A stretch of 47,359 nt of DNA from the NCBI GenBank assembly GCA_964365915.1, contig CAYIRJ010000004.1, positions 1-47,359 on the forward strand. Direction: 5' to 3'. The DNA is from Candidatus Woesearchaeota archaeon (GTDB lineage: Archaea; Nanobdellota; Nanobdellia; SCGC-AAA011-G17; DATDVL01). Made by a program: the position numbers and the translations under genes. A model generated the notes under the pieces. The model ran no database searches and had not been told where the DNA came from. It saw only the letters and a program-made list of their open reading frames with translations. Below, in pieces: positions 568 through 43,166 of this stretch. Each line of letters begins with the position of its first letter. Position 1 is the stretch's first letter.

Positions 568-669
568 GGGCCGGTAGCTCAGCTTGGTAGAGCATTTGCC
601 TTTTATCAAGCAAGCATATCCTGCTTCAAAGCAAGCAAGTGGTCATGGGTTCAAATCCCATCCGGCCCG
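568..669 (+). tRNA. tRNA-Lys(UUU) with a 28-nt canonical 37/38 intron (606-633)
   Basis: Acceptor GGGCCGG (568-574) pairs with CCGGCCC (662-668); discriminator G. D-arm is GCTC-AGCTTGGTA-GAGC. Anticodon stem TTTGC (595-599) pairs with GCAAG (635-639); loop CT-TTT-A. The central BHB helix CTTT/AAAG is perfect. T-arm is ATGGG-TTCAAAT-CCCAT. It lies 2 nt after tRNA-Asp. Confidence 0.9.
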
Positions 670-10060: not shown

Positions 10061-11266
10061 AAATATATCATCCTCAGCATCGTAGTCCATTCCTAAGGCC
10101 TTTGTGAATTTTACTTGGTTTTCCTTGATCTGCAGTTTTTGCAGTGCCTTGTTCCTTATTTGTCGAATTCTTTCTCGTGTCACGTTTCCCTCGATTGTAC
10201 CTACTTCTTCCAATGTTCTTTTTTCTCCTGTAAGATACAATAATCTTATTATTCTTTTTTCTCTTTCTTTTAAAGAAGTTTTATCAAGTGCTTGAATAAT
10301 CATTTCTTTATCATAGACTAAAATATTTTCCCTTATCCTTTCTTGGTAATCATGGCAATCTCTTTTTTCCAAATAATCAACTATTTCTTGATCTTGTTGA
10401 TTGTGCTGAATATTTTCTTTTGCTGGAGTTAAGTCCTGCTTAGCTCTGTCATCTAATGTCAACGTTCGATGAAGATTCTGATCTTTGGGTTCTTGGTAAA
10501 GAGTGTTTATTTCTAGATTTACAGGATTCAAAGCCTTGCATATTAATTCAGTTTTTTTATCCGCAATTTCTTCTCCTCTTATTACCTTTTCTGCCCTTAG
10601 GAATAAAAAAGAATCTAGATGCACTGCTGCATAGGAATAGTTATGATAATTTTCACTCATTACACCAAAAAAGGCAGCTCTATACACTGCTGTGTATCCT
10701 GGATGTTTTTCTGCTTTTCTCACGAAATTAATAATAGATATAGAAGCCCGCTGTATGAGATCTTCCAATGGTGGTGATTCTAAATTCCTTGATTTTCTAT
10801 AGCGAATAAATGATTTTCCTGCCTGCGTGGCTGTATGCAGAAAATACGTCTCCATAAATCGTTGCATCTCTTGTTCAGAATATCCTGCTTCTTTCAACGC
10901 TGGAGCAATATGCCCTCGATAATGATGTACAAATGTTGCATGGTATCTTTGATTTACTTCTTCTTGCGTGGCAGATGGGTGCTGCTGTAAAAATTTGAGA
11001 AAGTTCCTTTTTCTTTCATCCCAGACTTTCTCTGACAATTGCCCTTTTCCCCTATTCCAAGCTGATTTTGAAATGCCTACATCTTTTTTTGCATTGTTAA
11101 TTCTCAACCGGTAGAACTTTTTGAGAATGGATTCTAGTCCTGCTTTCCTTACATCCCTTATGCTCGCTCCTTGATGACTTGCTAAATAGTCATAAAATTC
11201 TGTTAATCCTCTTTCCCAATATGCGTAATCCTTCTGTACCTGTTTTTGCTCTGATATAGTAGTCAT
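10055..11266 (-). CDS. sigma-70 family-like protein (region 2-like and region 4 HTH)
   Basis: 403 aa. The C-terminus LKEREKRIIRLLYLTGEKRTLEEVGTIEGNVTRERIRQIRNKALQKLQ is the classic sigma-70 region 4.1/4.2 signature. LEDLIQRASISIINFVRKAEKHPGYTAVYRAAF resembles region 2.1-2.3. The gene is AT-rich (15/60 G+C at 10201-10260). Confidence 0.8.
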   Translation of the reverse strand: MTTISEQKQVQKDYAYWERGLTEFYDYLASHQGASIRDVRKAGLESILKKFYRLRINNAKKDVGISKSAWNRGKGQLSEKVWDERKRNFLKFLQQHPSATQEEVNQRYHATFVHHYRGHIAPALKEAGYSEQEMQRFMETYFLHTATQAGKSFIRYRKSRNLESPPLEDLIQRASISIINFVRKAEKHPGYTAVYRAAFFGVMSENYHNYSYAAVHLDSFLFLRAEKVIRGEEIADKKTELICKALNPVNLEINTLYQEPKDQNLHRTLTLDDRAKQDLTPAKENIQHNQQDQEIVDYLEKRDCHDYQERIRENILVYDKEMIIQALDKTSLKEREKRIIRLLYLTGEKRTLEEVGTIEGNVTRERIRQIRNKALQKLQIKENQVKFTKALGMDYDAEDDIFL

Positions 11267-11287
11267 TTATCTCTTGTCATTCATTTT

Positions 11288-11306
11288 CTTTTTAAGACTT
11301 GTGAAC
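11288..11306 (-). promoter_or_regulatory. TATA box plus shared upstream motif for the sigma-like gene
   Basis: Minus strand reads GTTCACAAGTCTTAAAAAG. The TATA centre is about 26 nt upstream of ATG 11266. The motif recurs at 26553-26569. Confidence 0.45.
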
Positions 11307-11308
11307 TT

Positions 11309-11722
11309 TTAGAATTCCATAACGTGAGGAGATTCCTTTATTTCCTCATTAGCAATCAGTGGAGCTGGTTCCCTACGATACACTCTTCCTTTTGCAATCA
11401 GTTTCGAAGACTCTTCAGGGTGCACTAAAGGAGGATGTTTATACCGTACTTTGACAGCATCATTTTGATACAGTACTGTTCCCTCTGCTTGTAAAATACA
11501 TACCAACCCCTCATCAAGTCCTGCTAGTGGAATATGCCATCCTAAATGAGTTTTTACAGAAGCGAACTGGATACTTTGATTGGGATATGTACATACATAC
11601 CAAAATTTTCCTTCCTCCTCACCCCTTGTTATTCCTCGTGTGATAATGGTCAGAATTTCATTTTTCTTTACTGTCCTTAATACTTCTTCTAATGCAGAAA
11701 AGACCCCCATATGTGACTTCAT
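11309..11722 (-). CDS. hypothetical protein (137 aa), directly upstream of the sigma-like gene
   Basis: Long ORF on the same strand as the sigma-like gene and in the same AT-rich insert. No family recognised. Confidence 0.55.
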   Translation of the reverse strand: MKSHMGVFSALEEVLRTVKKNEILTIITRGITRGEEEGKFWYVCTYPNQSIQFASVKTHLGWHIPLAGLDEGLVCILQAEGTVLYQNDAVKVRYKHPPLVHPEESSKLIAKGRVYRREPAPLIANEEIKESPHVMEF

Positions 11723-11787
11723 ACGTGACTTATTAGGCGTTATGAGTATAAATACTTAATGTCTACCAAATAAAAAATCAGCACAAT

Positions 11788-11797
11788 CTTTATAAAT
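11788..11797 (+). promoter_or_regulatory. TATA box (CTTTATAAAT) for rps12
   Basis: Centre lies about 28 nt upstream of ATG 11820, which fits a leaderless transcript starting at [11 protein letters not shown]. Confidence 0.45.
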
Positions 11798-12257
11798 GGC
11801 TTTCAGAAATTATTTTCTTATGTCTGGAAAATCCAATGGATTATTTGCTGGAAAGCGCTTGAAGAATCGGAGAAAACAATTTCGGTGGAACTCTAAATGG
11901 TTCACTAGGAAAACACTGAATCTTAAGGAGAAAGCAGATCCTCTGGGAGGAGCTTCGCAGGCTAAGGGAATTGTTTTGGAAAAGACACAGCGGGAAGCGA
12001 AACAGCCAAATTCAGCGATGAGAAAATGCGTTCGCGTTCAGCTTCAGAAAAATGGAAAGATCATCACTGCATTTGCGCCAAGAGATGGAGCCATTAAGCA
12101 GATTGATGAGCATGATGAAGTCATTGTTGAATGCATTGGTGGTACTATGGGAAGGGCGAAAGGAGATTTGCCTGGTGTGAGATGGCAAGTGATCAAGATT
12201 AACGATCAAAGCTTGGATGCCTTACTGAAAGGCAAGATTGAAAAGGGACGACGATGA
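11796..12257 (+). CDS. rps12: 30S ribosomal protein S12 (uS12)
   Basis: [24 protein letters not shown]...[25 protein letters not shown]. The true start is probably ATG 11820 (see TATA spacing); the ORF-track start at 11796 overlaps the TATA box. Confidence 0.93.
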
Positions 12258-28974: not shown

Positions 28975-30595
28975 TACTTTCTTCAAATGATTTATTTAAT
29001 TCTGGATATGTTTCAGCAATTGCACGCTTGGTTCCTACATAGATACGCTCTATTCTTTCTTTATCTTCAGGCTTGCGGCGCTCTGACAGTGCAGCAAGCT
29101 GACACAACGAGTTTTGAATGGTAATATTCTTCCACGTATCTATCCAAAGCTGATAATCGCGAGCAGGAAAATATTTTTTCCATTCGTTCCATGCATGCTG
29201 CAAGAGTTCATTACGCTGACCTGGACGGGCAGCCATGAATGCAGCAATGTCGTGCAAAGAATCGGAACGTCCACCGGTCTCCCAGTCAATGACATATCCC
29301 CCTTCCAAAACGTTTGATTCTGCAGCATCACGATGCGCAAGCACTTCAATCCCTAACAGATTACGAAGCTTCGCAAGATTTTCCAATTTTCTTTCGTACT
29401 GGTCCAAAAATTCCTGCTGCCTTGAATGCTGCAACCTTCTCCTGCACCTTCTCTTAAATTCATCTTGATAATCATGCACCGGCTCATCAGGAAAATGCTC
29501 TTGGTACGGGCCTGTTCCTGCTGCCATCAACTTGATGAGATGGGTAATGCCTTGCTTGAAATCATTTAAGTTATTTTCTGCACATTGGTTCAAAGTTTTT
29601 TTGTTTACTCGACGCGTTACAAGAATATACTCCTCCCCATATGGAAAACTGCTCAACGGATCTTCGCATGGCACCTGTTCAATATTCAGTACACCATAGC
29701 GTTGTATATATGCATCTCGCTGCAAACTGGCTATTGCTTCCTCTCGCTTCAATGCTTTTGGATCAATACTACGCTTGAAGAAATAACTATCTTTAGTGAA
29801 AAGATTCTCTTTGCATTCTAACAATACATGTGTCTTGCGGGATTGTGTAACTTTAGCTAATCGTGCAGGATTCTCTAAGATCTTTTCCAATGAAGAACGA
29901 AAATGCTGCTGTGCACGTTTGTATTCTCCCAGAGAACGACAAAAAATTCCTGCCAATAATTCAAGATTTACCGTGTTCTCAGGATATTTCTTAGGAAGCG
30001 ACTCGACTATTCGATGTGCAAGGTAATACCAACCCGATCTTTGATACATATCAAACCGCATAATATCCTTTCTTAATGTCCCACGGAAAGGAAATCCCAA
30101 CCATCCCAACAACGGCAGCATATATTCTGCAAATGTTTTAATATTATCATATTTTTTTTGGTTTTGGATCTTTTGTGCAGTATACAAAAAATATTGATCA
30201 TATCTCTGATTGAGGAACGCTTCCTTTGCACATAGGTCCAAATAAATAGTTGGATTATTTGTTTGTTCTTTTATTGTATCGATTTTTTCAAGGATTTTCT
30301 TTTTTTTCCCAAAAACAGTTTTCGCAAGAGGGAGTATTCCCGTTTTTGGTTCTGCACTTGTTAAGAAGCAAGATGTCATGAACGTCCCACCAAAAAAGCC
30401 CAAAAAAAACAAACGAAGATGATCTTCAATAGGTAGATCTATGTCTGATAACCAATATCGTATTCCTCCATAGATAACTGCGCCCCCTCCTATGGAAAGA
30501 CCATTCATTTCTTTTACCCATTTTTGATGCTTTCGTAATCTCTCCTCAAGCGTTTGTTCCTGATACATCAACTTTTTCTCGTTTTTGAAATTCAA
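28949..30595 (-). CDS. membrane-anchored protein with a C-terminal APH/choline-kinase-like phosphotransferase domain
   Basis: 548 aa. N-terminal hydrophobic helices (GLSIGGGAVIYGGIRYWL, FFLGFFGGTFMTSCFL) and C-terminal LAHRDAAESNVLEGGYVIDWETGG (HxDxxxxN, IDWE). Confidence 0.6.
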   Translation of the reverse strand: MNFKNEKKLMYQEQTLEERLRKHQKWVKEMNGLSIGGGAVIYGGIRYWLSDIDLPIEDHLRLFFLGFFGGTFMTSCFLTSAEPKTGILPLAKTVFGKKKKILEKIDTIKEQTNNPTIYLDLCAKEAFLNQRYDQYFLYTAQKIQNQKKYDNIKTFAEYMLPLLGWLGFPFRGTLRKDIMRFDMYQRSGWYYLAHRIVESLPKKYPENTVNLELLAGIFCRSLGEYKRAQQHFRSSLEKILENPARLAKVTQSRKTHVLLECKENLFTKDSYFFKRSIDPKALKREEAIASLQRDAYIQRYGVLNIEQVPCEDPLSSFPYGEEYILVTRRVNKKTLNQCAENNLNDFKQGITHLIKLMAAGTGPYQEHFPDEPVHDYQDEFKRRCRRRLQHSRQQEFLDQYERKLENLAKLRNLLGIEVLAHRDAAESNVLEGGYVIDWETGGRSDSLHDIAAFMAARPGQRNELLQHAWNEWKKYFPARDYQLWIDTWKNITIQNSLCQLAALSERRKPEDKERIERIYVGTKRAIAETYPELNKSFEESINPSVFLG

Positions 30596-30612
30596 AAATT
30601 TTTCGCCAAAAA

Positions 30613-30625
30613 GCTTATATAAACC
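30613..30625. promoter_or_regulatory. single palindromic TATA element (GCTTATATAAACC) between divergent genes
   Basis: Lies about 24 nt from the minus-strand ATG 30595 and about 26 nt from the plus-strand ATG 30645. Confidence 0.4.
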
Positions 30626-30644
30626 CTTTTTAACTGACTTGATT

Positions 30645-32486
30645 ATGGCGAAGAAAACACCTGACGCACCTTCTTCTCAACCTGATTTGGCTTCCAAGCT
30701 TCCAGAACTGCCTGATGCAGTGAAACAGCGCTTTGAAGAAGTCAAGAAAAAACTAGAAACTTTTAAAGATAAGACCTTAGAAAAATTTGACAAATATATT
30801 CTGGGCATTTCATTATTGCCGCCAGAGAAACAGCCTTTTGAAGGTCCCCCTCCTGCGGCTGCAACACCTCCTCCCGGACCTGAACAGAAAAGTGATGAAC
30901 TGAACATTCTTGTCTTGATAAATGATAGTGACAGTGAGAAAATGAGCAAGTTTGAGCTGCGGGAAAAAATGTTTACTGTTCTTGACAAGATTGCTGCGGA
31001 CATTGACAAAAGCTTCAAGCCTGAAGTGATGCTGCTGACAGAACTGCGCGAAAGTTTGTATGACGCGAAATATGAAATTTTGCGACTTATCGGCATGAGC
31101 GCTCCTATTTACGATCCCAAGGATCTGCTTGCTGCACTCAGGATCAGCGAAGTGCACAAAAGCATGGTCATCAAGAAATTTGAGAAATATGTGGTGAGCT
31201 ATGTTGCTGTGGGAAGCTTGTTTAGAGGAGATGCAAAGAGCAATGACATTGACGTTGCGGTGATCATTGATGATACTGATGTGAAAAAGATGAGCAGGGC
31301 AGAGCTGAGAGACAAGCTTGGAGCAATCATCAGAAGCATGGGATACGAGGCTTCTTCCATTACTGGAGTGAAAAAGAGCTTTCACATTCAAGTATACATC
31401 TTAACTGACTATTGGGAAAGCATCAAGGAAGCGAATCCCGTAATCTTTACGTTCTTGAGAGATGGCGTGCCGCTCTATGACCGAGGGACGTTCATGCCCT
31501 GGAAACTGCTGTTGGAACAGGGAAGAATTCGACCCAGCCCGGAAGCCATTGACTTGTTCATGGACATGGGAAAACGGCTGATTGAGAGGGCAAAAGGAAG
31601 GATGATTGGTATTGTTGCAGAAGATATTTACTATGCAGCCTTGAATCCGAGTCAGGCTGCGTTGATGCTGTATGGCATTCCTCCTCCTACGCCGAAGGAA
31701 ACGGTGAAACTGCTGGAGGATATTTTTGTGAAGAAAGAAAAATTACTGGAAATGAAGTATGTCAACACGCTTGAAAAGATCAGGAAGTGCTACAAGGACA
31801 TTGAGCATGGCACGATCAAGGACATTACGGGAAAAGAAATTGACCAGATGCTGCAGGAGACTGAGGATTATTTGAAGAGGATTGATCATTTGTTCAAGCA
31901 GATTGAGAAGCAGGCTGACAAGAAAGCAGTTGAGGAATTTTACAGCACTTTTGCTAAGGCGGTAAATGATGTTCTTGCTACTGAAAACATTATTGCCAAC
32001 AAAGACTTGGAAAAGGACTTCAAGCTGCTTGTCAAGAAAAACATCATTCCCAAGACCTTTGAAAAAAATCTTGAAGCTGTTGTTGGGCTGAAAAAGAAAA
32101 AATTAACGCGCTTTGAACAGAACAAAGTCATTCGTGAGAATACTTTTTTGATCCGCATCTTGTTTGAACATATCCAACGGAAAAAGGCGCTGGAGCTGGA
32201 ACGGGCAAAGATACGGGTGAAATACGGGGAGAAGTTTGCAGATGTTTACTTATTGGATAAGGTGGCTTATCTGGTGGAGGATGCGGATGGAACGGAAAAA
32301 CGCATCAACAAGGCTCTCTTGACTAAGGAAGGGGGATTAGAAAACATCCAGGAAAGTAACTTAAATGAACTGGAGACGGCATTGACTGCAGTGCCGATTC
32401 CCCAGAAGGTGTTCATCAAGGAAAAGATCTTTGAAGACTTAAGAAAATTGTATGGCGAAGATATTGAGATTGCTGTCGGACGATAA
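30645..32486 (+). CDS. large nucleotidyltransferase (Pol-beta superfamily) protein with a degenerate N-terminal NTase repeat and a helical C-terminal region
   Basis: GSLFRGDAKSNDIDVAVIIDD is the NTase G-S...D-x-D motif. An earlier degenerate copy reads LNILVLINDSDSEKMSKFELREKM. The segment ..LLEQGRIRPSPEAI..YGIPPPTPKE is paralogous to 42354-43166. The likely start is ATG 30645. Confidence 0.65.
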   Translation: MAKKTPDAPSSQPDLASKLPELPDAVKQRFEEVKKKLETFKDKTLEKFDKYILGISLLPPEKQPFEGPPPAAATPPPGPEQKSDELNILVLINDSDSEKMSKFELREKMFTVLDKIAADIDKSFKPEVMLLTELRESLYDAKYEILRLIGMSAPIYDPKDLLAALRISEVHKSMVIKKFEKYVVSYVAVGSLFRGDAKSNDIDVAVIIDDTDVKKMSRAELRDKLGAIIRSMGYEASSITGVKKSFHIQVYILTDYWESIKEANPVIFTFLRDGVPLYDRGTFMPWKLLLEQGRIRPSPEAIDLFMDMGKRLIERAKGRMIGIVAEDIYYAALNPSQAALMLYGIPPPTPKETVKLLEDIFVKKEKLLEMKYVNTLEKIRKCYKDIEHGTIKDITGKEIDQMLQETEDYLKRIDHLFKQIEKQADKKAVEEFYSTFAKAVNDVLATENIIANKDLEKDFKLLVKKNIIPKTFEKNLEAVVGLKKKKLTRFEQNKVIRENTFLIRILFEHIQRKKALELERAKIRVKYGEKFADVYLLDKVAYLVEDADGTEKRINKALLTKEGGLENIQESNLNELETALTAVPIPQKVFIKEKIFEDLRKLYGEDIEIAVGR

Positions 32487-34630: not shown

Positions 34631-36292
34631 ATGCGCGGGGGTATGTTGATTGCCTGGTTGAATGCTGCAACGCCTGAAACCTTTATTGGAGAGAAAGCAA
34701 GAACCCTTGCTGCATTAGCAACTCATGGGATCAATGTGCCGAAAGGATTTGTCATTACCCAAGAGGCATTTACCCACTTTCTTGCGGCAAACCAGATTGA
34801 CTTGCAGTTTCTTGAAAACTTGAACTTGGAGGATCAGGAACAAGTGGCGCATGCGGCAGCAGAACTCCAGCATCTTTTCCAGCAGGCCTATTTTCCAGAA
34901 ACACTACAGCAGGAAATTCTTTCAGCGTATGACCAGATGCTGGTGAGTGCTGAAGTGTATCATCATGTCAGCGCAGAAGCCTTGAACATTCTGAAGACAG
35001 GAAGAGACCTTCCTAAGGTCCTGATTCGGTCCAGCTGGAAGGAAGGAAAAGCGCTTTTTCATATTAAAGGGAAGGAAGCACTGCTGCAAGCCATCAAGGA
35101 AAGTTGGATGCTCCGCTTTCAGCCTGCACTATTGCAGCACCACATGCATGACATGGAAGTTATTGTACAAAAAATGCTTACTGTAGAACGCTCGGGTGTT
35201 GTTGTCCCTGATCAGCAGACTCACATTGAAGTAGTGTTAGGACTCTATGATGCGGTTACTCAGCAGCTTGTTCAGCCTGATGTGTATGCTCTTGATGAGC
35301 AGGGCACGTTTATTACCAAACAAGTGGTGAAGCAGGAATTCCTCTTCGTACGCGATTCCCAGGGAAGCTTGATCAAAAAGCATTTATTCTACCATGGGGA
35401 AAGCCAGAAACTCAGCGATTATGATGCACGCCAAATAGCAAAGCTCTACCAGAAAATTACGAGCATACTTGGATACATGTCTATTCTTGAATTTGCATTT
35501 GATGGTAATCAATTGTATGTACTGCAGGCTACCCAGCAGAAGCAGGAACCTGTCGTGGAACACGTAATGCAGCAAGCACAACCAGATATGCAAGCACAGG
35601 AACCGGAAACGCTTTCTTCAGAAGATCTGCATACTGTGACTGAACTGAAGGTGTTTCTTGAACAGAAGGACAGCTCTATTCCCTGTGATGGAGTGTTTAC
35701 TACTGCCTCTCTCCAAGATCTTCAAGAGATAGCCAAGGAATACCAACAAAATACGGTGTGGTATGCATTGCGCGATGCGCAGGATCTCCTGGACATTGCT
35801 AAGTTCCATGATGCAGGAGCGAACAATGTGGGGATTGCTATTTGTGGACTCACGGAAATTGAGCAGCTGCGGATGGTGAAGAACTCCCTGAAGAAGGCGG
35901 GGCTGGAACCTTTGGAGGAAATTGAAGTAGGATTAGTTATCGATTCCCCTCTTCTCCTCTATTTGCTTGATGACATTGACAGAGAAGGAATTGATTTCTT
36001 AGTAGTGGATTTTGCAACGCTGGCAGAGCGGAGTGCGGGAAAAGTCACGGACGGAAAAAACAAGGGATACTTGAAGTTACTGCATCATTTAGTGAAGGAA
36101 TGCAAATTGAGAAATATTGAAATTGGGGTTGCGGGGACCTTTGATGACGAACTGATTGACTTCTTTGTGAAGGCAGGATTTGACAGCTTGATATTGCCGA
36201 AGGCACAGCTGGAAAATGTGAAGAAAACAGTTGCGCGTGCGGAAAAAAGGCTGTTATTAAACGCTGCACGAAGAGACTTGAAAGAGATATGA
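34631..36292 (+). CDS. PEP synthase/PPDK-like protein without the phosphohistidine swivel domain
   Basis: 553 aa. The N-terminus GEKARTLAALATHGINVPKGFVITQEAF..VQKMLTVERSGVV is a PPDK_N-type ATP-grasp. The C-terminus ..IEVGLVIDSPLLLYLLDDIDREGIDFLVVDFATLAE is PEP-utilizer TIM-barrel-like. No GGxTSHAAI-type motif is present. Confidence 0.6.
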   Translation: MRGGMLIAWLNAATPETFIGEKARTLAALATHGINVPKGFVITQEAFTHFLAANQIDLQFLENLNLEDQEQVAHAAAELQHLFQQAYFPETLQQEILSAYDQMLVSAEVYHHVSAEALNILKTGRDLPKVLIRSSWKEGKALFHIKGKEALLQAIKESWMLRFQPALLQHHMHDMEVIVQKMLTVERSGVVVPDQQTHIEVVLGLYDAVTQQLVQPDVYALDEQGTFITKQVVKQEFLFVRDSQGSLIKKHLFYHGESQKLSDYDARQIAKLYQKITSILGYMSILEFAFDGNQLYVLQATQQKQEPVVEHVMQQAQPDMQAQEPETLSSEDLHTVTELKVFLEQKDSSIPCDGVFTTASLQDLQEIAKEYQQNTVWYALRDAQDLLDIAKFHDAGANNVGIAICGLTEIEQLRMVKNSLKKAGLEPLEEIEVGLVIDSPLLLYLLDDIDREGIDFLVVDFATLAERSAGKVTDGKNKGYLKLLHHLVKECKLRNIEIGVAGTFDDELIDFFVKAGFDSLILPKAQLENVKKTVARAEKRLLLNAARRDLKEI

Positions 36293-36580
36293 TTACTTCT
36301 TTGAATACTGCTCACTGGGATCGTAGGGAAGAGGATTCTCTGCATACGAGATGATCATTTCTTTCTTTCCCAGATTGTGGTACATCATGAAAAACTGCTC
36401 AAGAGGTGGAGGGGCAGGTAAAGACTTTTCTGGTTTGGGAGGAGCTACAGGCATTTGGCTCATGATCTTTCCTCTTTGATATTGTTCTTGTTTATCTGGT
36501 AATGTTTTTTTGGTCATGCATGCAACAGTTAATGCACTGAGTATGGCAAGCAATGATGAAGTACGTGCAAGCGATCTCAT
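36293..36580 (-). CDS. small putative lipoprotein (95 aa)
   Basis: Signal-like MRSLARTSSLLAILSALTVAC followed by a Pro-rich region. ATGA overlap with the upstream gene. Confidence 0.5.
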   Translation of the reverse strand: MRSLARTSSLLAILSALTVACMTKKTLPDKQEQYQRGKIMSQMPVAPPKPEKSLPAPPPLEQFFMMYHNLGKKEMIISYAENPLPYDPSEQYSKK

Positions 36581-37806
36581 TTTCTTCCTCCGCTTTTATC
36601 TAAGACTTCTGGTAGCATAGGAAGCGCTTCTGGAGTTAATCTCTCAGTTCCATACACCACTTCTCCTGTTATTTCTCCTTCTTTCCTGTTTATCTGGAGG
36701 CGAAGATGAGAACTTTTGAATTTTACTTTCCCGTTACCAATCTTTTCATCAATGTGCTCAGGCCGGACTAATGCATATGCTATCTGTGCATCCTCTGATG
36801 GCAATTTTATTCCGATGACTTCTCCTTCATTGTCTAAATTGAGAAAATCAAACTTCAGCACGGGTATTTCCTTGACGGTTCCTTCTGTGACTGTGATATC
36901 CCCCCAGTAATGTGCAGAAGTTCCCTTTGGGACAAAGAGGCTTGATTGCTTCGGCTGGACTGAGTTTTGACGCATCAATTCTTTCTTTTCTGCATCATAT
37001 TTTTGTTGCAAATCCAGAATGAGGCCATTGGTCCCTTTGATCATTTCCTTTGTGTTTCCCATGTCGTCAATTACTTTTTCTAGATTATTATTGACGGCAC
37101 CTAGGGAAGTCTCTACTCCTTCCACTCTTTCGTTCAATGTCCTTGTCATTCCTGCAGTCTTTTGCATATCTTGTGAGATCCTATTATAGGTTCCATCCTG
37201 TTTTCTTTGCATTCCGCGAAATTGGCGCTGCAATTCTCTTTTCTCTCTGCCTGCTGCATTCTTCACTTCATCCCGATATTGCTGCAATGTTTGCTGCTCT
37301 GCAGCATGCATCTGATCATGCACTTCCCATCCTTTTCTTGTTATGTAATATGCAGTAATACCCATAGCAAGTGCTGCAATGCCAATTCCTATTCCGAGAC
37401 CCCATCCTATTCTTTCTGGTAGTTGCGGTGGAACTTGTGGGACTGGGGCAGGTGGAGCTAGAGTTTGAGGAAGAACATAGATGGGTGGTTGATTTTTTCC
37501 TGCTTGCTTCACTTCTTCTCGTAACTGACCATAATTTTGCTGCGCTTCTGCCCGCAGAGCATCCACCTTTGCATGTAACCTTTCTTGATTCTTGTCTATT
37601 TTATCCATTCCTCTTAATCCTACTGCGGCAGCTTCTCCATATACTACTAATGTTTCTTTAGTGAGGTCATTCTCCTTGCGGTACTGTTCTTCAAATTTGT
37701 TTAGTGTGGTATTTACATTCTTCACATCTGTTGTTAAACCTGCAAGGGAGCATTCTATTCTAAGCCCTTGTTCGAGAATATCAGAGAAACTTCCGTCCGC
37801 AGTCAT
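36577..37806 (-). CDS. bitopic coiled-coil membrane protein (409 aa)
   Basis: Coiled-coil N-terminus, a Pro-rich linker, one TM helix (IGWGLGIGIGIAALAMGITAYYI), a second coiled coil and a beta-rich C-terminal domain. No family recognised. Confidence 0.55.
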   Translation of the reverse strand: MTADGSFSDILEQGLRIECSLAGLTTDVKNVNTTLNKFEEQYRKENDLTKETLVVYGEAAAVGLRGMDKIDKNQERLHAKVDALRAEAQQNYGQLREEVKQAGKNQPPIYVLPQTLAPPAPVPQVPPQLPERIGWGLGIGIGIAALAMGITAYYITRKGWEVHDQMHAAEQQTLQQYRDEVKNAAGREKRELQRQFRGMQRKQDGTYNRISQDMQKTAGMTRTLNERVEGVETSLGAVNNNLEKVIDDMGNTKEMIKGTNGLILDLQQKYDAEKKELMRQNSVQPKQSSLFVPKGTSAHYWGDITVTEGTVKEIPVLKFDFLNLDNEGEVIGIKLPSEDAQIAYALVRPEHIDEKIGNGKVKFKSSHLRLQINRKEGEITGEVVYGTERLTPEALPMLPEVLDKSGGRK

Positions 37807-37808
37807 AC

Positions 37809-38222
37809 TTATTTCCTTGTCCGAATATCAAACTTCTCTTTCCCACAGTCAACTTGTACCCGAGATTCTGGAGATTTTCGTTCTCCCATTGGGCCATATT
37901 GGGGATGGCTGGAAGCAGGTGCTGATGGCAAGGATTGCTGAATCATATGCTGCAATAATTGCTGGTACTGTTGCATGAGCATTTGTATTTGTACATCTCC
38001 CTGAGGCTGATATGTCGGTATAGGGATTATTGTCGAGGCATTTGCTGGCTGGTTCAGGACATAGCTTAGTCCAGATCCTTGAGGAACGCCTTGAAATACG
38101 AAAACTTGTGGTTCAGGTTTTTCACATTTCTTGCTACAATCTATGTTAATTCCTGGTGCAGTGCACGCGGCAAGCGCAATGCCTACTAAAGAACTTTCTG
38201 TTAATGCTTTGAACATCTTCAT
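37809..38222 (-). CDS. putative lipoprotein (137 aa from ATG 38222)
   Basis: MKMFKALTESSLVGIALAAC has a lipobox-like Cys, followed by a Gln/Pro-rich region. ATG 38222 lies 1 nt after the upstream stop (38224-38226). The ORF-track start is 38264. Confidence 0.5.
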   Translation of the reverse strand: MKMFKALTESSLVGIALAACTAPGINIDCSKKCEKPEPQVFVFQGVPQGSGLSYVLNQPANASTIIPIPTYQPQGDVQIQMLMQQYQQLLQHMIQQSLPSAPASSHPQYGPMGERKSPESRVQVDCGKEKFDIRTRK

Positions 38223-38223
38223 T

Positions 38224-38754
38224 TTATTTTCCTCCCCTGCTTTGAGCATACTGTTCCACTTCATTGATCAAACCCACAAGATCGTCTTGCGACTGGACCT
38301 CGATATCATTCCAAAATGCATAAACCCCAGTATCACACGGATCTTTTGACCTTCCGAAATAGAAATGCGGACGGACGGTAGTTTCTCCATCATGATATAC
38401 AACCCATGCACGATCTCCCTCTTTTTCTCCATAGAAATGTTCTCTGACTTTTCCACCTACTATTAGTGCACATCTTTCCGGCGCTGCCTTTGCACGCTCT
38501 TCTAAGTTCTTTTTTTGTGAAGAAGCAGCTTCCTTTGGCTTTTTTTCTGGCTCTTCTATCAACTCGTCTGAATCCTTTGGCATGGAATCTGGGTTTTCAA
38601 CAAGGTACTCTTTGCCATTTTTATCAGTTTTTTCTTCCCTTCTCACTGTTTCTTGTGGTACATAGGCTTTATTGCAGTGAGTAGCAACAAGAATTCCCGC
38701 TAATCCTGCTAAAGTAAGTGTACTGGTGATCGCAGTATATTTTGCTGTATTCAT
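38224..38754 (-). CDS. putative membrane-anchored/secreted protein (176 aa)
   Basis: N-terminal hydrophobic segment ITSTLTLAGLAGILVATHC, then a charged linker and a globular C-terminus. No family recognised. Confidence 0.5.
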   Translation of the reverse strand: MNTAKYTAITSTLTLAGLAGILVATHCNKAYVPQETVRREEKTDKNGKEYLVENPDSMPKDSDELIEEPEKKPKEAASSQKKNLEERAKAAPERCALIVGGKVREHFYGEKEGDRAWVVYHDGETTVRPHFYFGRSKDPCDTGVYAFWNDIEVQSQDDLVGLINEVEQYAQSRGGK

Positions 38755-38836
38755 TTTTCAAACCCCTCTTTTTTGCAAATGCTAAGATTATTTAAAGCTT
38801 TCTATTGTTCTTATCCTTAAGTGGTTACTTAGGTTG

Positions 38837-39703
38837 TTATGATTGGGTGGCTTTTGCTGTAAGTCCTAAGAAAGGTTCTACGCCAATGAATAGGTTAGGA
38901 TTTGCTCTTTGGGTTTCTACAAGATTGTCTAGAGACTGTAAACGCCGTATATCCATTGCTTTAGGATGTTGTTCGTAGAATTCTGCGGCTTTTGCATACT
39001 CTGCTGCCATTTCTGTTTCTTTTTTGGCCAAATTTAAACGTCCTTCTGCTTCTTCGGCTGCAAGAGTTGCTTCTGCTAATCTTGCCTCTAATTCAGGAGG
39101 GAGATCTATGCGACGGTATAATAGTGCATCTGCCGTTATCCCTAATTGTTCTATTGCGAATTTTTTTGTATCCTCAGAGAGGGTATCAATAGTCTTCTGT
39201 CCACCAACAGTTGCTTGCGCGAGTTCTCTCATTTCTTTTAACTTTTTAGAAAGCACGAATTGCCGCAAGTCTGCTTCTGCGCGATGAATGAGTAAAGTTT
39301 TATAATCAATCTTTTCTGATTCGCTATCATATGCGGCTTGTACAGTTTTTTTTGGATCAGTAATACGGTAATAAAGTGATGCTGACGCCGAAAGGACATC
39401 AATATAATCCCCAGTCTGCACTGTCTTTACCTCGATGTGTTCATTTCTTGGTCTTACGGTATTAATGACCATTCCGCTGCCCCATAATTTAGCTGGGCTA
39501 AAAATAATACGCCATCCTGCACCCTTTACTTCCTCACTTAATTTTCCCCTTCTCCAATAAATCCATTCTTGACCCGACCGTATTTGTAATAATTTAAGAA
39601 ATCTTGTTTCAATAATCATTTCTTCATGAGGACTTTCTAAATAGAACTTGTTTTGCGTATCTTCATCACTTGATTCTGAAAGTTCTGGCTCTTCTGTTGA
39701 CAT
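38837..39703 (-). CDS. SPFH/Band-7 (stomatin-prohibitin-like) domain protein with no N-terminal TM helix
   Basis: 288 aa. ..VKTVQTGDYIDVLSASASLYYRITDPKK, ..HRAEADLRQFV.., ..LGITADALLYRRIDLPPELEARLAEA.. and ..AMDIRRLQSLDNLV follow the SPFH pattern. The N-terminus is acidic, not hydrophobic. Confidence 0.72.
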   Translation of the reverse strand: MSTEEPELSESSDEDTQNKFYLESPHEEMIIETRFLKLLQIRSGQEWIYWRRGKLSEEVKGAGWRIIFSPAKLWGSGMVINTVRPRNEHIEVKTVQTGDYIDVLSASASLYYRITDPKKTVQAAYDSESEKIDYKTLLIHRAEADLRQFVLSKKLKEMRELAQATVGGQKTIDTLSEDTKKFAIEQLGITADALLYRRIDLPPELEARLAEATLAAEEAEGRLNLAKKETEMAAEYAKAAEFYEQHPKAMDIRRLQSLDNLVETQRANPNLFIGVEPFLGLTAKATQS

Positions 39704-39824
39704 ATTATTTTACAGTCATTTCCCCTTTAAAAATCTTTCTTTTGTCGTCTTTTTATGGTGATTACAAATGCATAAGGTTTATATAGGAGTTCAACTATTA
39801 TGATTACTATTAAGTAGTATACTT

Positions 39825-40145
39825 ATGGAGAGAAAAATGGATGTTAAAACAAAAGTAAAAGAAAAGGGAAAGAAACATTGGAAATACGCAGTGGGTTTAG
39901 CAATTGGAATTCCCTTAGGTACGTGTGCAGGATCTTGCGCGGGCGAACCTGATAAATATTATAGAATAGATGCAACAGGAGACGGCAAGCAGGATATTGT
40001 CCTAGAAGACAGGGGCTATTGTTTTGGTCTTTGGGGTGTTGATCATTATGTCCTTACTAGAGATGGAAGCAAGAACCGTATCTTGGATGGGAAAACTCTT
40101 ATTGAACGCATTGCTGAAAATGCGGAGAATGTTGAGGTAGAATAA
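39825..40145 (+). CDS. small membrane-anchored protein with one FG-GAP-type Ca-binding motif (106 aa)
   Basis: Hydrophobic AVGLAIGIPLGTCAGSC followed by DATGDGKQDIVL. Confidence 0.5.
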   Translation: MERKMDVKTKVKEKGKKHWKYAVGLAIGIPLGTCAGSCAGEPDKYYRIDATGDGKQDIVLEDRGYCFGLWGVDHYVLTRDGSKNRILDGKTLIERIAENAENVEVE

Positions 40146-40146
40146 T

Positions 40147-40269
40147 ATGAAATGCGCTAAATGTTATTACATCTGGGAAAGCAGAATCGAAGATCCGAAA
40201 AGCTGTCCACGCTGCAAAACGCGCTTGGATTATGGAAAAGCTTTAGAAGCTGTAATGATAGGAGCATAA
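40147..40269 (+). CDS. 40-aa zinc-ribbon mini-protein (absent from the ORF track)
   Basis: MKCAKCYYIWESRIEDPKSCPRCKTRLDYGKALEAVMIGA carries CxxC-x13-CxxC. Its ATG is 1 nt after the upstream TAA, and its TAA is 1 nt before the next ATG. Confidence 0.55.
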   Translation: MKCAKCYYIWESRIEDPKSCPRCKTRLDYGKALEAVMIGA

Positions 40270-40270
40270 T

Positions 40271-40582
40271 ATGAAAGAAGAAAATAGCAATACGGGAAGA
40301 ATCTTAGTACTTAGTTTTATTGGTGGAATCGCAGCTACGACCTGTGTTCGAACAGGTGATATCAAGGAGAGATTAAATGAAATAGATCAGAAACAGATAA
40401 GGTATATACAACATCAATTAGATGAATTAGACAAAAAAACGAAACAAGAAACCGTTACTTCAAGCAACGTTTTTGGTGATGAGAAACCAGAAACTTTTTA
40501 TGAAGTCAATGGCCAGCGCGCTTATCTTACCATTGACGGAAAACCTGTTGAAGAATATATAAGGGATATAAGGGAACGATAA
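40271..40582 (+). CDS. small N-terminally anchored protein (103 aa)
   Basis: TM-like ILVLSFIGGIAATTCV, a coiled segment and a C-terminal FYEVNGQRAYLTIDGKPVEEY. No family recognised. Confidence 0.5.
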   Translation: MKEENSNTGRILVLSFIGGIAATTCVRTGDIKERLNEIDQKQIRYIQHQLDELDKKTKQETVTSSNVFGDEKPETFYEVNGQRAYLTIDGKPVEEYIRDIRER

Positions 40583-40584
40583 CA

Positions 40585-41226
40585 ATGGCAGAAACAAAAG
40601 AAACAAAGAAACCTGTATACACGCTTGAAAGCGCTCGCAAGAGCTTGCCTTTTACTGGGTATGGCATTCATAGACATCTTGTTGAAACGTATTCTGGCAT
40701 GCTGAAAAAGACCAAGGGATCACTTTACATTGATCCTCAACAGATTGAAGCCTTGAATAACGTTCTTGCTGAGGAAACAGAAAAGGCAGTTTTACGTGAA
40801 GTGGGAGTCAAAGAACTTGCAACTCCTGCTAAAGGTTCAGAAGCTATGGGTGCTTTTTTTCAACGTGCCTTGGGCTTGAAAGAACTTACCCCAAAATTTG
40901 GAAAAGATGGCTCGCTTCTTGGTGTTTATGAGCAGATTAACCGATTTACTCAAGGATATCGCCAACGCGTACAAAGTACTATGGTTCAGGAAATGCCTGG
41001 AGATGATAGAAAATCCCTTGCTGGAGAAATTCAGAAATACGGGAATTTCAAACTCAAAGAAGAAGTTGTAAATACTCCTGAAGCACTCGCTGCAGCTTGG
41101 GCCACCTACGAGAATATTAAACAAAGTGAAGAGAAGGATGAAGATAAGAAGTTCGCATTACGAAAAAGTCTTGAAAAACTGATCAAAGAAGAGGAAGAAA
41201 AACAAGAAATGAGGAAAGCTGCTTAA
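40585..41226 (+). CDS. hypothetical soluble protein (213 aa)
   Basis: Long ORF in the operon with no signal sequence and a Lys/Glu-rich tail. No family recognised. Confidence 0.5.
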   Translation: MAETKETKKPVYTLESARKSLPFTGYGIHRHLVETYSGMLKKTKGSLYIDPQQIEALNNVLAEETEKAVLREVGVKELATPAKGSEAMGAFFQRALGLKELTPKFGKDGSLLGVYEQINRFTQGYRQRVQSTMVQEMPGDDRKSLAGEIQKYGNFKLKEEVVNTPEALAAAWATYENIKQSEEKDEDKKFALRKSLEKLIKEEEEKQEMRKAA

Positions 41227-41237
41227 GGAGAAAAACC

Positions 41238-41534
41238 ATGAAAACATTACCAAAACTCGGATTGCTGGGATTATTGGGTGGTGGTTTAATGGGTTGTGGA
41301 GATGTAGGATATCAACCTGCTAATGAACCTCTCGAAAGAGATACTTCCCAGGATACTGTTCCTTTCTTTAACCAGTTTGGGGTGCTCTATCCTGTAGAGT
41401 CTACTTTTGGAATTGACTATCCAGTTAATTCCCTTGCTACTGGTGATTTTGATGGTGATGGGGATTTAGATCTTGCTGTGGGAAGTGAAGATGCGATAAT
41501 TATTTACGAGAACAAAATTCCTCAGAAGAAATAA
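41238..41534 (+). CDS. small lipoprotein with one FG-GAP repeat (98 aa)
   Basis: MKTLPKLGLLGLLGGGLMGC has a lipobox-like Cys; ATGDFDGDGDLDLAVG follows. GGAG lies upstream of the ATG. Confidence 0.6.
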   Translation: MKTLPKLGLLGLLGGGLMGCGDVGYQPANEPLERDTSQDTVPFFNQFGVLYPVESTFGIDYPVNSLATGDFDGDGDLDLAVGSEDAIIIYENKIPQKK

Positions 41535-41535
41535 C

Positions 41536-41952
41536 ATGAAACTGTTGCAAACGCTGGGACTCATTGGTGCAGGATTAGCATCTTTGCTCCAGGGATGCAG
41601 TAAAACCCCTTCCGTTTCTATCAATAACAATGTCGTGCCGAAAGAAGGGGACAGGGCTATTCTGCAGTTACCCAGTCTGATTAAACCTCCTTACTACTAT
41701 GCCTATATCTGGGATTTAAATGGTGATGGGAACATTGATGAAGCAGTCCATGTCTATGACGTTGATCATCTCAACATAGGTGTAGATCTCAACAAATTGG
41801 CAGGAATTCTTAACACATTAAATAAAGAACAATGGGCTCATTTCCGAGCTGAGGATATTCAACAACCTTATTTTGTTACTCCTCAAACGCGAATCATGTC
41901 TGAAGACCAAAGAACATTTTTCACGCAATCCTATCAACGTTTGCAAAGATAA
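41536..41952 (+). CDS. small lipoprotein with one DxNxDGxID Ca-binding motif (138 aa)
   Basis: MKLLQTLGLIGAGLASLLQGC is followed later by WDLNGDGNIDEAV. Confidence 0.55.
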   Translation: MKLLQTLGLIGAGLASLLQGCSKTPSVSINNNVVPKEGDRAILQLPSLIKPPYYYAYIWDLNGDGNIDEAVHVYDVDHLNIGVDLNKLAGILNTLNKEQWAHFRAEDIQQPYFVTPQTRIMSEDQRTFFTQSYQRLQR

Positions 41953-41953
41953 C

Positions 41954-42352
41954 ATGACTCATCCTACAAAACCTTCAGTTGAATTTAAGGAAGAACCCTT
42001 ACGCTATCTTTGTAATGAATCCTTCTTTGGATTACGAAAACTTTTTCCTGAACATTGGAACGATGGAAATATTGCATATATTGAAGGACTGATTGGAGGA
42101 TACTTTTTGGCAGATGCAGGCACAAGCCTTTATGGAGAAGCTGCTGTTCTTCCTAATATTAATCAACCTACGTTTTCACGCGATACAGAATTGCAAGGAA
42201 TAGTTAAAGGATCATTACTTGTCGAAGGCATTTACAGTTTAATTGCACCTAAGAAATTAAAACAATTCTGGAATGAAAATCCCATTTATTCCCGTGGCGC
42301 ACTCGGAACCATGATTGGCGCATCAGCACGAGGCATTCAACAACTTTTGTAA
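41954..42352 (+). CDS. hypothetical protein (132 aa from ATG 41954)
   Basis: ATG 41954 lies 1 nt after the upstream TAA. The ORF-track start at 41873 overlaps the previous gene. Confidence 0.5.
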   Translation: MTHPTKPSVEFKEEPLRYLCNESFFGLRKLFPEHWNDGNIAYIEGLIGGYFLADAGTSLYGEAAVLPNINQPTFSRDTELQGIVKGSLLVEGIYSLIAPKKLKQFWNENPIYSRGALGTMIGASARGIQQLL

Positions 42353-42353
42353 T

Positions 42354-43166
42354 TCACATTCCCTTTTTCTTCTCAATATATTCCTTCATTGCATGTACAA
42401 AATCCTCTGCCTTTTCCTTTAATTCATCGTAGTGCTTTCCAGAAATTTCCTTGATGTCGCGATGTACAATGTGCTTGAATGTTAGATACAGTTCTTGCAT
42501 GATCTTGGCATGCTTATGCTTAATATGGGTTCCTGCTAGTTTTCTTTCCACCATTTCAGCAACATGGCTCGGAGTGGGGGGAATCTCGCCTGCAGCCATT
42601 AAAGCAGCATGTGCAGCGTCAATAGCAGCCCAATACAAATCAATGGTTGCTCCGAGCAGGTGATCCCGCGACCTGGCAAGAGAAGCAGGAGCCAAGGTAA
42701 AATAGGTCCAGACTGATTCGTCTGTTGGTCTGATCCTTCCTTGTTCCAGCAATGCCTGCAGAGGATCAAAGAAGCCTGTGTCAATGACTGCAATGCCATA
42801 GCGCATGACATTAATGGCAACAGGATCGCCTGCACGCACATATTCCCACCAGGCAGTCAACTTCATGGACTGGACATGCAATCTCCTTGGATCGACATCA
42901 TTCATTGCCCTTGCCACGATAACCCGGTAAGCCTCGACCAATTCTTTATTGAACTGAAAACGGAGATCATCTACGATAATAAGAATGTCCAGATCGCGCT
43001 TCTTTCCTCCCGGATCCTTGACTGCAGAACCAAACAAGACCAAGGCGCGGATAAAATTGCCAAATTCCTTGTAAAGAATCTTAGCGAATTTCTGCGTGGT
43101 TTCAATATCCTCTGCAAGATAACGGGAGAAATTCCTCTGCTCACGCTGCGGAATAGAAAACTTCAC
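42354..43166 (-). CDS. nucleotidyltransferase (Pol-beta superfamily) fused to a helical HEPN-like C-terminal domain
   Basis: 270 aa. LVLFGSAVKDPGGKKRDLDILIIVDD is the NTase motif. ..LLEQGRIRPTDES..AGEIPPTPSH is paralogous to 30645-32486. Confidence 0.7.
   Translation of the reverse strand: MKFSIPQREQRNFSRYLAEDIETTQKFAKILYKEFGNFIRALVLFGSAVKDPGGKKRDLDILIIVDDLRFQFNKELVEAYRVIVARAMNDVDPRRLHVQSMKLTAWWEYVRAGDPVAINVMRYGIAVIDTGFFDPLQALLEQGRIRPTDESVWTYFTLAPASLARSRDHLLGATIDLYWAAIDAAHAALMAAGEIPPTPSHVAEMVERKLAGTHIKHKHAKIMQELYLTFKHIVHRDIKEISGKHYDELKEKAEDFVHAMKEYIEKKKGM

Follow-up and report, generated by a model that had tools for sequence, protein, structure and literature searches.

A clade-restricted, co-inherited 12-gene module centred on a hairpin-less stomatin in groundwater Nanoarchaeia

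SPFH proteins act universally as organisers of membranes, and few of their clients are known. In the stomatin-NfeD operons (P. horikoshii PH1511/PH1510; E. coli QmcA(YbbK)-YbbJ), the SPFH domain and its C-terminal coiled coil belong to a protein with a hairpin or transmembrane (TM) segment, and an NfeD or ClpP-type partner is encoded alongside; QmcA-YbbJ forms 26 heterodimers (as cited in PMC13086221). In B. subtilis, SamG and SamH recruit SamI/YdjI, an SPFH protein without a TM segment (PMC8581546; bioRxiv 10.64898/2026.02.06.704340). In methanogens, the ESCRT-linked 'Meth_adaptin' loci, which have a conserved membrane-remodelling gene context, encode a protein that combines SPFH, coiled-coil and Zn-ribbon parts (Makarova et al. 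2024, PMC10936438). Here we describe an SPFH locus in a 47,359-nucleotide (nt) stretch of DNA, referred to as the window, from contig CAYIRJ010000004.1 of a Nanoarchaeota (DPANN) metagenome-assembled genome; identical genes are present on contigs from groundwater of Hainich aquifer well H51 (0.1 µm fraction), and the source archaeon is assumed to be episymbiotic. The locus is a clade-restricted, co-inherited and presumably co-regulated module of 12 genes (36293-42352) centred on a hairpin-less stomatin of groundwater Nanoarchaeia. It consists of two tightly packed back-to-back operons around one conserved promoter region, is held under purifying selection, diverges fast and undergoes cassette exchange. 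An SPFH scaffold operon is in itself of a known kind, and the novelty of this one lies in its unconventional partners.

Sequence comparison placed the SPFH protein in the stomatin branch of the SPFH/Band 7 superfamily, minus the N-terminal hairpin. Pfam returned Band_7 (PF01145; E 8.8e-15, 55.6 bits against a cut-off of 23.6) as the sole match at E<=1, so that Band_7_1 (PF13421) was not among them, and the P. horikoshii stomatin 3bk6 was matched at E 6e-7. When a profile of six family members was compared with all PDB sequences, stomatins only were retrieved (2.7e-15 to 1e-11), namely the P. horikoshii stomatin at 2.7e-15 and the human stomatin entries, of 16 identical chains each, at about 1e-11; HflK/C, flotillin and prohibitin chains were absent at E<=1. 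The alignments, which covered query residues 47-278 for human stomatin and 90-256 for P. horikoshii stomatin, span the SPFH domain plus the C-terminal coiled-coil segment, and no Cys motifs follow the stomatin-like C-terminus. As stomatins are the closest relatives and their solved entries hold 16 chains, a homo-oligomeric ring or cage would be expected.

No TM segment or hairpin was found in the SPFH protein (no 19-residue window at a Kyte-Doolittle hydropathy >=1.6), and residues 1-30 contain 10 D/E against 1 K/R. A stop codon lies immediately 5' of the start, indicating that the open reading frame (ORF) cannot be extended, and the five homologues likewise lack a TM segment or hairpin. These results confirm the first-pass annotation, which had described an acidic N-terminus in place of the membrane hairpin. 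They also bear out its remark that NfeD is missing: no NfeD or ClpP match at E<=1 was found in the 12 window products, in the partners at loci L001 and L013 or in five members of the g2 family (gene names as in Table 1). A divergent NfeD among the partners was considered and rejected on sequence evidence, since g2, g4 and their analogues gave no Pfam, NCBIfam or PDB signal. The accompanying statement that SPFH genes are usually paired with NfeD, however, overstates the oddity of the locus, because seven of nine P. aeruginosa SPFH genes have no NfeD partner (PMC13086221), and an SPFH gene without NfeD is in itself ordinary. Nor is a TM-less SPFH protein with co-encoded membrane recruiters unprecedented, given YdjI/SamI (PMC8581546). 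Compared with the stomatin-NfeD operons, therefore, the module shares the SPFH domain and C-terminal coiled coil but has neither a hairpin or TM segment on the SPFH protein nor an NfeD or ClpP-type partner; its partners are instead orphan single-pass and lipoprotein-like proteins and a Zn-ribbon mini-protein.

The first-pass annotation had drawn the unit as five minus-strand genes at 36293-39703. This operon is real: all five ORFs are present there, the same products (288, 176, 137, 409 and 95 amino acids, aa) were called by independent gene callers in two public assemblies, and the spacers in the order SPFH-g2-g3-g4-g5 are 82, 1, 2 and -4 nt, the last being an overlap of the g5 start with the g4 end (ATGA). 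The 1-nt spacer between g2 and g3 depends on the g3 start at ATG 38222, which lies behind GGAGG, whereas starting it at 38264, the mechanical ORF start, would create an overlap with g2. The extent of the unit did not stand. A divergent plus-strand operon of seven genes (39825-42352) is as tightly packed, with spacers u1-znr-u2-u3-u4-u5-u6 of 1, 1, 2, 11, 1 and 1 nt, and it is there, outside the five-gene interval, that the partners best conserved with the SPFH gene (u1, znr and u3) are found. The last gene, u6, is counted in the module by spacing alone, its start having been reassigned to ATG 41954, 1 nt past the u5 stop. The first-pass observation was thus correct and its interpretation partly supported, with the unit redrawn to 36293-42352.

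The region between the operons showed 75-80% DNA identity in L006, L008 and L011. It holds two TATA-like boxes, putative promoters for the SPFH gene and for u1, which we take to be such from the archaeal TATA consensus; a bacterial sigma-70 and terminator scan was uninformative for an archaeon. Between the boxes, at positions 39757-39773, lies an imperfect palindrome of the type GTGATTACA(n)ATTCAC, which is shared by five loci and may serve as an operator.

The SPFH protein has few relatives. Among 5.8 billion proteins, five other clusters at 90% identity were found, 45-51% identical to it and all on Nanoarchaeia-type contigs; scans of GTDB and JGI data added fragments of the same lineages only, and IMG/VR contained no SPFH relative. 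The neighbourhoods of the resulting six alleles were compared by phmmer and jackhmmer. In L001, the most distant allele, the module is one co-directional array (a u1-like gene, znr, two small genes, the SPFH gene and four more genes), with the same promoter element 5' of its first gene. This single array behind the conserved promoter element is the strongest evidence that the two operons of the window are one unit. L013 represents the complete downstream operon of another allele, where SPFH is followed by a TM-linker-domain protein, a lipoprotein, a 360-aa bitopic coiled-coil protein that has a C-terminal domain and, last, two lipoproteins; next comes the same convergent gene for a pyruvate phosphate dikinase (PPDK)-like protein as in the window, implying that the downstream architecture is conserved even where sequence is not. 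In all genomes the chromosomal position is the same, between L10e and a gene for a 270-aa nucleotidyltransferase (NTase)-type protein. The gene neighbourhood is thus conserved in related genomes, in line with the functional module proposed in the first pass.

It could be argued that there is no complex at all, and that a stomatin-like gene merely sits among unrelated, fast-evolving small ORFans for secreted or membrane proteins, of which DPANN genomes have many, and whose co-transcription reflects genome compaction. Most partners are indeed orphans, for seven of them (g2, g4, g5, u2, u4, u5 and u6) no homologue was detected elsewhere among the loci compared, and the distal genes of both operons vary between alleles. 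Yet znr and a u1-type gene accompany the SPFH gene in all six alleles, whether the operons are divergent or single and even in L011, where the gene order is reshuffled. In addition, u3 recurs in five of the six alleles and g3 in four, the promoter region is conserved, and u1 has been exchanged jointly with the SPFH domain, as described below. Taken together, these results make a chance assembly of unrelated genes distinctly unlikely.

The u1 homologues adjoin the SPFH gene in L005, L006, L008, L009, L010 and L018 (3e-16 to 3e-23), and the u1 analogues in L001 and L011 were assigned by position and a WKY-type motif; the basic W-K-Y juxtamembrane motif is kept even in L001. Matches to u3 in other loci ranged from 2e-79 to 2e-24, and in L011 hhalign related the gene that follows SPFH to u3 at E 1.3e-5. 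Among 1.84 billion representative proteins, u3 had four real relatives; a further match to the 1852-aa repeat protein P0012 consisted of repeated weak matches and was judged spurious. An AlphaFold2 (AF2) model built from the four-sequence alignment was all-alpha (pLDDT 76, pTM 0.68) and had no match in BFVD.

The gene znr was found as a block of 'intergenic' DNA more conserved than the flanking coding DNA, and it is absent from public gene calls, so that a conserved 40-aa gene was overlooked by standard annotation. In each allele it follows the u1-type gene at a distance of 1-5 nt. Across alleles that share about 50% identity in SPFH, 21 of its 40 positions do not vary, and its dN/dS (the ratio of nonsynonymous to synonymous divergence) is 0-0.19. 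Comparison with Pfam Zn_ribbon_PF0610 gave E 7e-4, below the cut-off. Relatives of 33-48 aa with the signature CxKCxYxW...PKxCPRCKxRLD stand alone in 26 IMG/VR viral contigs (L019-L044; for example, L019 6001-6084), without SPFH, u1 or u3 genes nearby. Such stand-alone Zn-ribbon mini-proteins form a widespread small-protein family.

The module diverges faster than its surroundings. Between the window and L006, flanking proteins were 86-89% identical, compared to 58% for u3, 50% for SPFH, 45% for u1 and 32% for g3, the other module genes being undetectable. Against the more distant L001, the flanks dropped to 42-70% identity and SPFH was still at 49%; as its identity to L006 and to L001 is similar, SPFH alleles do not track genome distance. 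The nonsynonymous divergence dN was 0.29-0.76 for the module and 0.08-0.10 for the flanks, and module proteins diverge 3-9 times faster than flanking genes. The module dN/dS was 0.12-0.30 where measurable (0.05 for the flanking NTase gene), implying that the genes are real and constrained but fast-evolving. Positive selection was not supported, dN/dS being <1 wherever measurable and the synonymous divergence dS saturated for window-versus-L006 pairs.

Replacement at the strain level was seen between L005 and L008. Their DNA agrees to 99.8% as far as the 3' end of u1; similarity is then absent across u1, the promoter and the initial ~690 nt of the SPFH gene, after which identity is 89%. Correspondingly, their SPFH proteins are 35% identical in the N-terminal part and 74% in the C-terminal part. 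These breakpoints indicate that u1 and the SPFH domain, with the promoter between them, were swapped as one cassette. The replacement lies at L005 7568-8688 and L008 1980-3179.

Fast divergence and cassette replacement between near-identical strains would also suit a virus-facing module, in which membrane-level defence or superinfection exclusion diversifies in an arms race. AbiEii and NTase (MNT-like) genes lie on either side of the L001 module, and the Zn-ribbon family is common in viral contigs, both of which are in keeping with such a role. However, PADLOC gave no match for SPFH or its partners apart from coiled-coil noise for g4, no nuclease, protease, NTPase or pore-forming effector was recognisable, dN/dS is well below 1, and a literature search on SPFH plus anti-phage gave nothing relevant. 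Moreover, the position between L10e and the 270-aa NTase gene, kept in all genomes, suggests vertical inheritance rather than a mobile defence island. A role against viruses is accordingly considered highly improbable. Two related candidates were rejected: a known defence system, as PADLOC was negative, and a viral or proviral origin, in view of the lack of PHROGs matches, of an IMG/VR relative of SPFH and of a BFVD match for u3, and of the syntenic position between housekeeping genes.

The locus resembles PspA-SamGHI (YdjGHI) in that an anchor-less SPFH protein is co-encoded with membrane proteins and associated with a Zn-binding module. It differs in that its SPFH domain is PF01145 and not Band_7_1/PF13421 (PMC3581485), its Zn ribbon is a separate 40-aa gene and not a C-terminal fusion, its membrane partners are unrelated and no PspA/ESCRT-III gene (no PspA_IM30/Snf7 match) is present. 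The likeness is one of analogy, not homology. Similarly, the Meth_adaptin loci share the combination of an archaeal SPFH protein with a coiled coil and a Zn ribbon, but the module has no Vps4, ESCRT-III, adaptin-appendage or GOLD matches and its Zn ribbon stands alone. These likenesses raise the possibility of a membrane-stress sensing and repair module, in which membrane proteins would sense perturbation of the envelope and recruit the soluble SPFH protein, and znr and u3 would act as effectors or adaptors, so that damaged membrane is stabilised. The logic of a TM-less SPFH protein with operon-encoded membrane proteins is the same (PMC8581546), SamI has a Zn finger, the archaeal ESCRT-linked SPFH proteins have a coiled coil and a Zn ribbon (PMC10936438), a Zn ribbon is always co-encoded with SPFH here, and u3 is all-helical and soluble. 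Nevertheless, none of the 12 products has a PspA/ESCRT-III family match, the u3 fold matches generic bundles only, and the SPFH domain is stomatin-type and not YdjI-type. Neither a divergence 3-9 times faster than that of the flanks nor cassette swapping would be expected of a housekeeping repair function, and the many lipoprotein-like partners would be left unexplained. We therefore regard a stress-repair role as unlikely.

The reading that we tentatively prefer, though it falls short of probable, is that the SPFH protein forms a cytoplasmic ring, docked by membrane proteins and small adaptors of the same module, and that this ring organises a set of fast-evolving envelope proteins. Having lost its hairpin, the SPFH protein would stay cytoplasmic and would oligomerise through the retained C-terminal coiled-coil segment, forming a ring or cap beneath the membrane as in solved stomatins. 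Since it cannot insert itself, docking by the co-encoded single-pass proteins is proposed. The chief candidate is u1, through its basic W-K-Y juxtamembrane tail, because this motif is kept even in L001 and u1 was swapped together with the SPFH domain; g2 and g4 may add to the docking, and znr and u3 would be cytoplasmic adaptors. Together with four or five lipoprotein-like proteins, the membrane partners would display small, fast-diverging extracytoplasmic domains, among them calcium-type loops of the DxDGD/FG-GAP-like kind and a beta domain carried by a ~125-residue helical stalk. The outcome would be an SPFH-corralled patch of envelope proteins, that is, a surface platform and not an enzyme system. 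What we infer, then, is oligomerisation, docking, topology and a surface or contact role; the envelope-spanning contact structure suggested in the first-pass annotation is a conjecture.

Several observations weigh against such a platform. Six alleles are known, from few groundwater sites. The conservation of g2, g4 and g5, which have no significant sequence homologues, is one of architecture only. The charges around the g4 TM segment weakly favour a C-terminus-in orientation, leaving its topology ambiguous, and an extracytoplasmic placement of the g4 domain rests on the domain of the L013 analogue being common to a lipoprotein. If u1 were a cleaved lipoprotein, as it might be, the proposed docking tail would be lost. 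The u3 model matches generic helical bundles only, so its fold is non-diagnostic, and znr could be a generic regulator, as its viral relatives stand alone without SPFH, u1 or u3.

A more specific version of the SPFH-organised platform would be a cell-surface attachment device of episymbiotic Nanoarchaeia, in which the ring, docked by the u1 tail and the Zn-ribbon adaptor, clusters the stalked beta-domain protein and single-blade FG-GAP-like lipoproteins into a Ca2+-dependent adhesin whose cassettes are exchanged between strains to track host or virus surfaces; this we consider very doubtful. The proteins concerned recall the FG-GAP/VCBS beta-propeller surface proteins of integrin-alpha type, as u4 matched Pfam FG-GAP above threshold (E 1e-6, 29.0 bits against a cut-off of 22.1), two of six u1 family members weakly matched FG-GAP_3 (E 0.002), and u4, u5 and the u1 homologues have a DxDGDxxD loop in common; within all ORFs of the window, DxDxDG loops are confined to module proteins. 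Unlike in propellers, with about seven tandem blades, each module protein has a single motif, and no tandem FG-GAP repeats were found. Assembly of a propeller from several module chains is pure conjecture.

An anchor-less stomatin with fixed, tiny partners would offer a compact natural system for studying how SPFH rings are recruited and what they contain. DPANN archaea depend on cell-cell contact, and almost none of their envelope proteins has been characterised; the module nominates candidate surface proteins in Nanoarchaeia. Because it is so narrowly distributed and its hosts have not been cultured, its practical impact is limited.

The features of the module are listed in Table 1. As the first-pass annotation had stated, the four minus-strand partners are orphans: g2, g3, g4 and g5 gave no significant family match in Pfam, NCBIfam, PADLOC, PHROGs or PDB sequences, the best PADLOC value for g4 (E 0.0013) being coiled-coil noise. 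How far these four are conserved differs. For g3, homologues were found at the matching position in L005, L006, L009 and L013 (phmmer 1e-8 to 4e-7; jackhmmer), with a dN/dS of 0.14-0.18. For g2 the case is marginal: positional analogues of 244-259 aa in the same four loci follow the same plan of TM segment, linker and C-terminal domain, and the C-domains align weakly (hhalign E 0.017). For g4 and g5 the agreement is in position and architecture only.

Table 1. Coordinates of the genes and promoter-region elements of the SPFH module in the window
Feature	Position	Strand	Description
g5	36293-36580	-	95 aa, lipoprotein-like; h-region then TVAC; Pro-rich segment
g4	36577-37806	-	409 aa, bitopic; predicted helices 7-104, Pro-rich linker, TM 133-155, beta-rich C-terminal domain
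g3	37809-38222	-	137 aa, lipoprotein-like (lipobox LAAC); middle region Q/P-rich
g2	38224-38754	-	176 aa; N-terminal TM 7-25, charged linker, C-terminal domain of ~85 aa
SPFH	38837-39703	-	288 aa, stomatin-type SPFH/Band 7; acidic N-terminus; C-terminal coiled-coil/oligomerisation segment
Divergent promoter region	39704-39824		121 nt between the operons
TATA-like box	39726-39733	-	TTTTTAAA; putative, for SPFH
Promoter element	39757-39773		GTGATTACA...TCAC-type, between both TATA-like boxes
TATA-like box	39778-39785		TTTATATA; putative, for u1
u1	39825-40145	+	106 aa, single-pass; juxtamembrane basic motif KKHWKY; Gly/Cys-rich hydrophobic GTCAGSCAG; short domain with DxDGD-type FG-GAP-like loop
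znr	40147-40269	+	40-aa Zn-ribbon mini-protein (CxxC...CxxC), MKCAKCYYIWESRIEDPKSCPRCKTRLDYGKALEAVMIGA
u2	40271-40582	+	103 aa; N-terminal hydrophobic anchor (…AATTC), short coiled coil, small C-terminal segment
u3	40585-41226	+	213 aa, soluble, all-alpha (helical bundle)
u4	41238-41534	+	98 aa, lipoprotein-like (LMGC); one FG-GAP repeat, DFDGDGDLD
u5	41536-41952	+	138 aa, lipoprotein-like (LQGC); DLNGDGNID loop
u6	41954-42352	+	132 aa, last plus-strand gene; weakly hydrophobic segments

The TM segment of g4 comes from a hydrophobicity scan. A low-confidence AF2 model from the single sequence (pLDDT 50) showed helices at 7-104 and 134-280 and strands at 329-383, with a helix running unbroken from the TM segment to about residue 280; at this pLDDT it is read for architecture only and is unusable for a fold search. 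Among 5.8 billion proteins no homologue of g4 was found besides itself, and the 360-aa positional analogue in L013, which has a TM segment, a coiled coil and a C-domain, showed no significant sequence similarity. No sequence homologue of g5 was found in the compared loci by jackhmmer, and lipoproteins of 209 and 134 aa occupy its position in L013. In the g2 analogues (L005 8971-9750; L006 4285-5019), the linker carries the motif KDVLEGI or NDVLDDV three times, about 15 residues apart, and may thus contain a repeated binding motif; the g2 of the window is without it.

Lipoboxes were tested by the expression [LVI][ASTVI][GAS]C and hydropathy only; by this test g3 (LAAC) and its homologues (LAGC) fit, and g5 (TVAC), u4 (LMGC) and u5 (LQGC) are near fits. 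On the plus strand, jackhmmer found no u2 homologue in the other loci, u5 had no family match in Pfam or NCBIfam, and u6 had neither a family match nor a homologue in the other loci.

Relative to L10e and the 270-aa gene that flank it, the L001 module has the inverted orientation; an AbiEii-family gene on one side and an HTH/NTP_transf_2 pair on the other (5899-6546 and 10845-11802) give it a toxin-antitoxin-like setting. In the window, the right flank of the module is the 270-aa NTP_transf_2/Polbeta-type gene (42354-43166, minus strand), whose product is unusually conserved, with 89% identity to L006 and 70% to L001, compared to about 52% to L001 for ribosomal proteins. It has a ~180-aa domain in common (33% identity) with a 633-aa protein of the window (30585-32486, plus strand). 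On the other side, 34631-36292 (plus strand) encodes the 553-aa PPDK-like protein, with PPDK_N (ATP-grasp) and PEP-utilizers_C domains and no match for the central phosphohistidine domain; the gene is kept convergent with the module in L013. Elsewhere in the window, two adjacent tRNA genes were identified by Rfam at 469-565 and 568-669 (plus strand; 49 and 60.7 bits), neither of them detected by ARAGORN. At 97 and 102 nt against a 71-position model, they probably contain introns.

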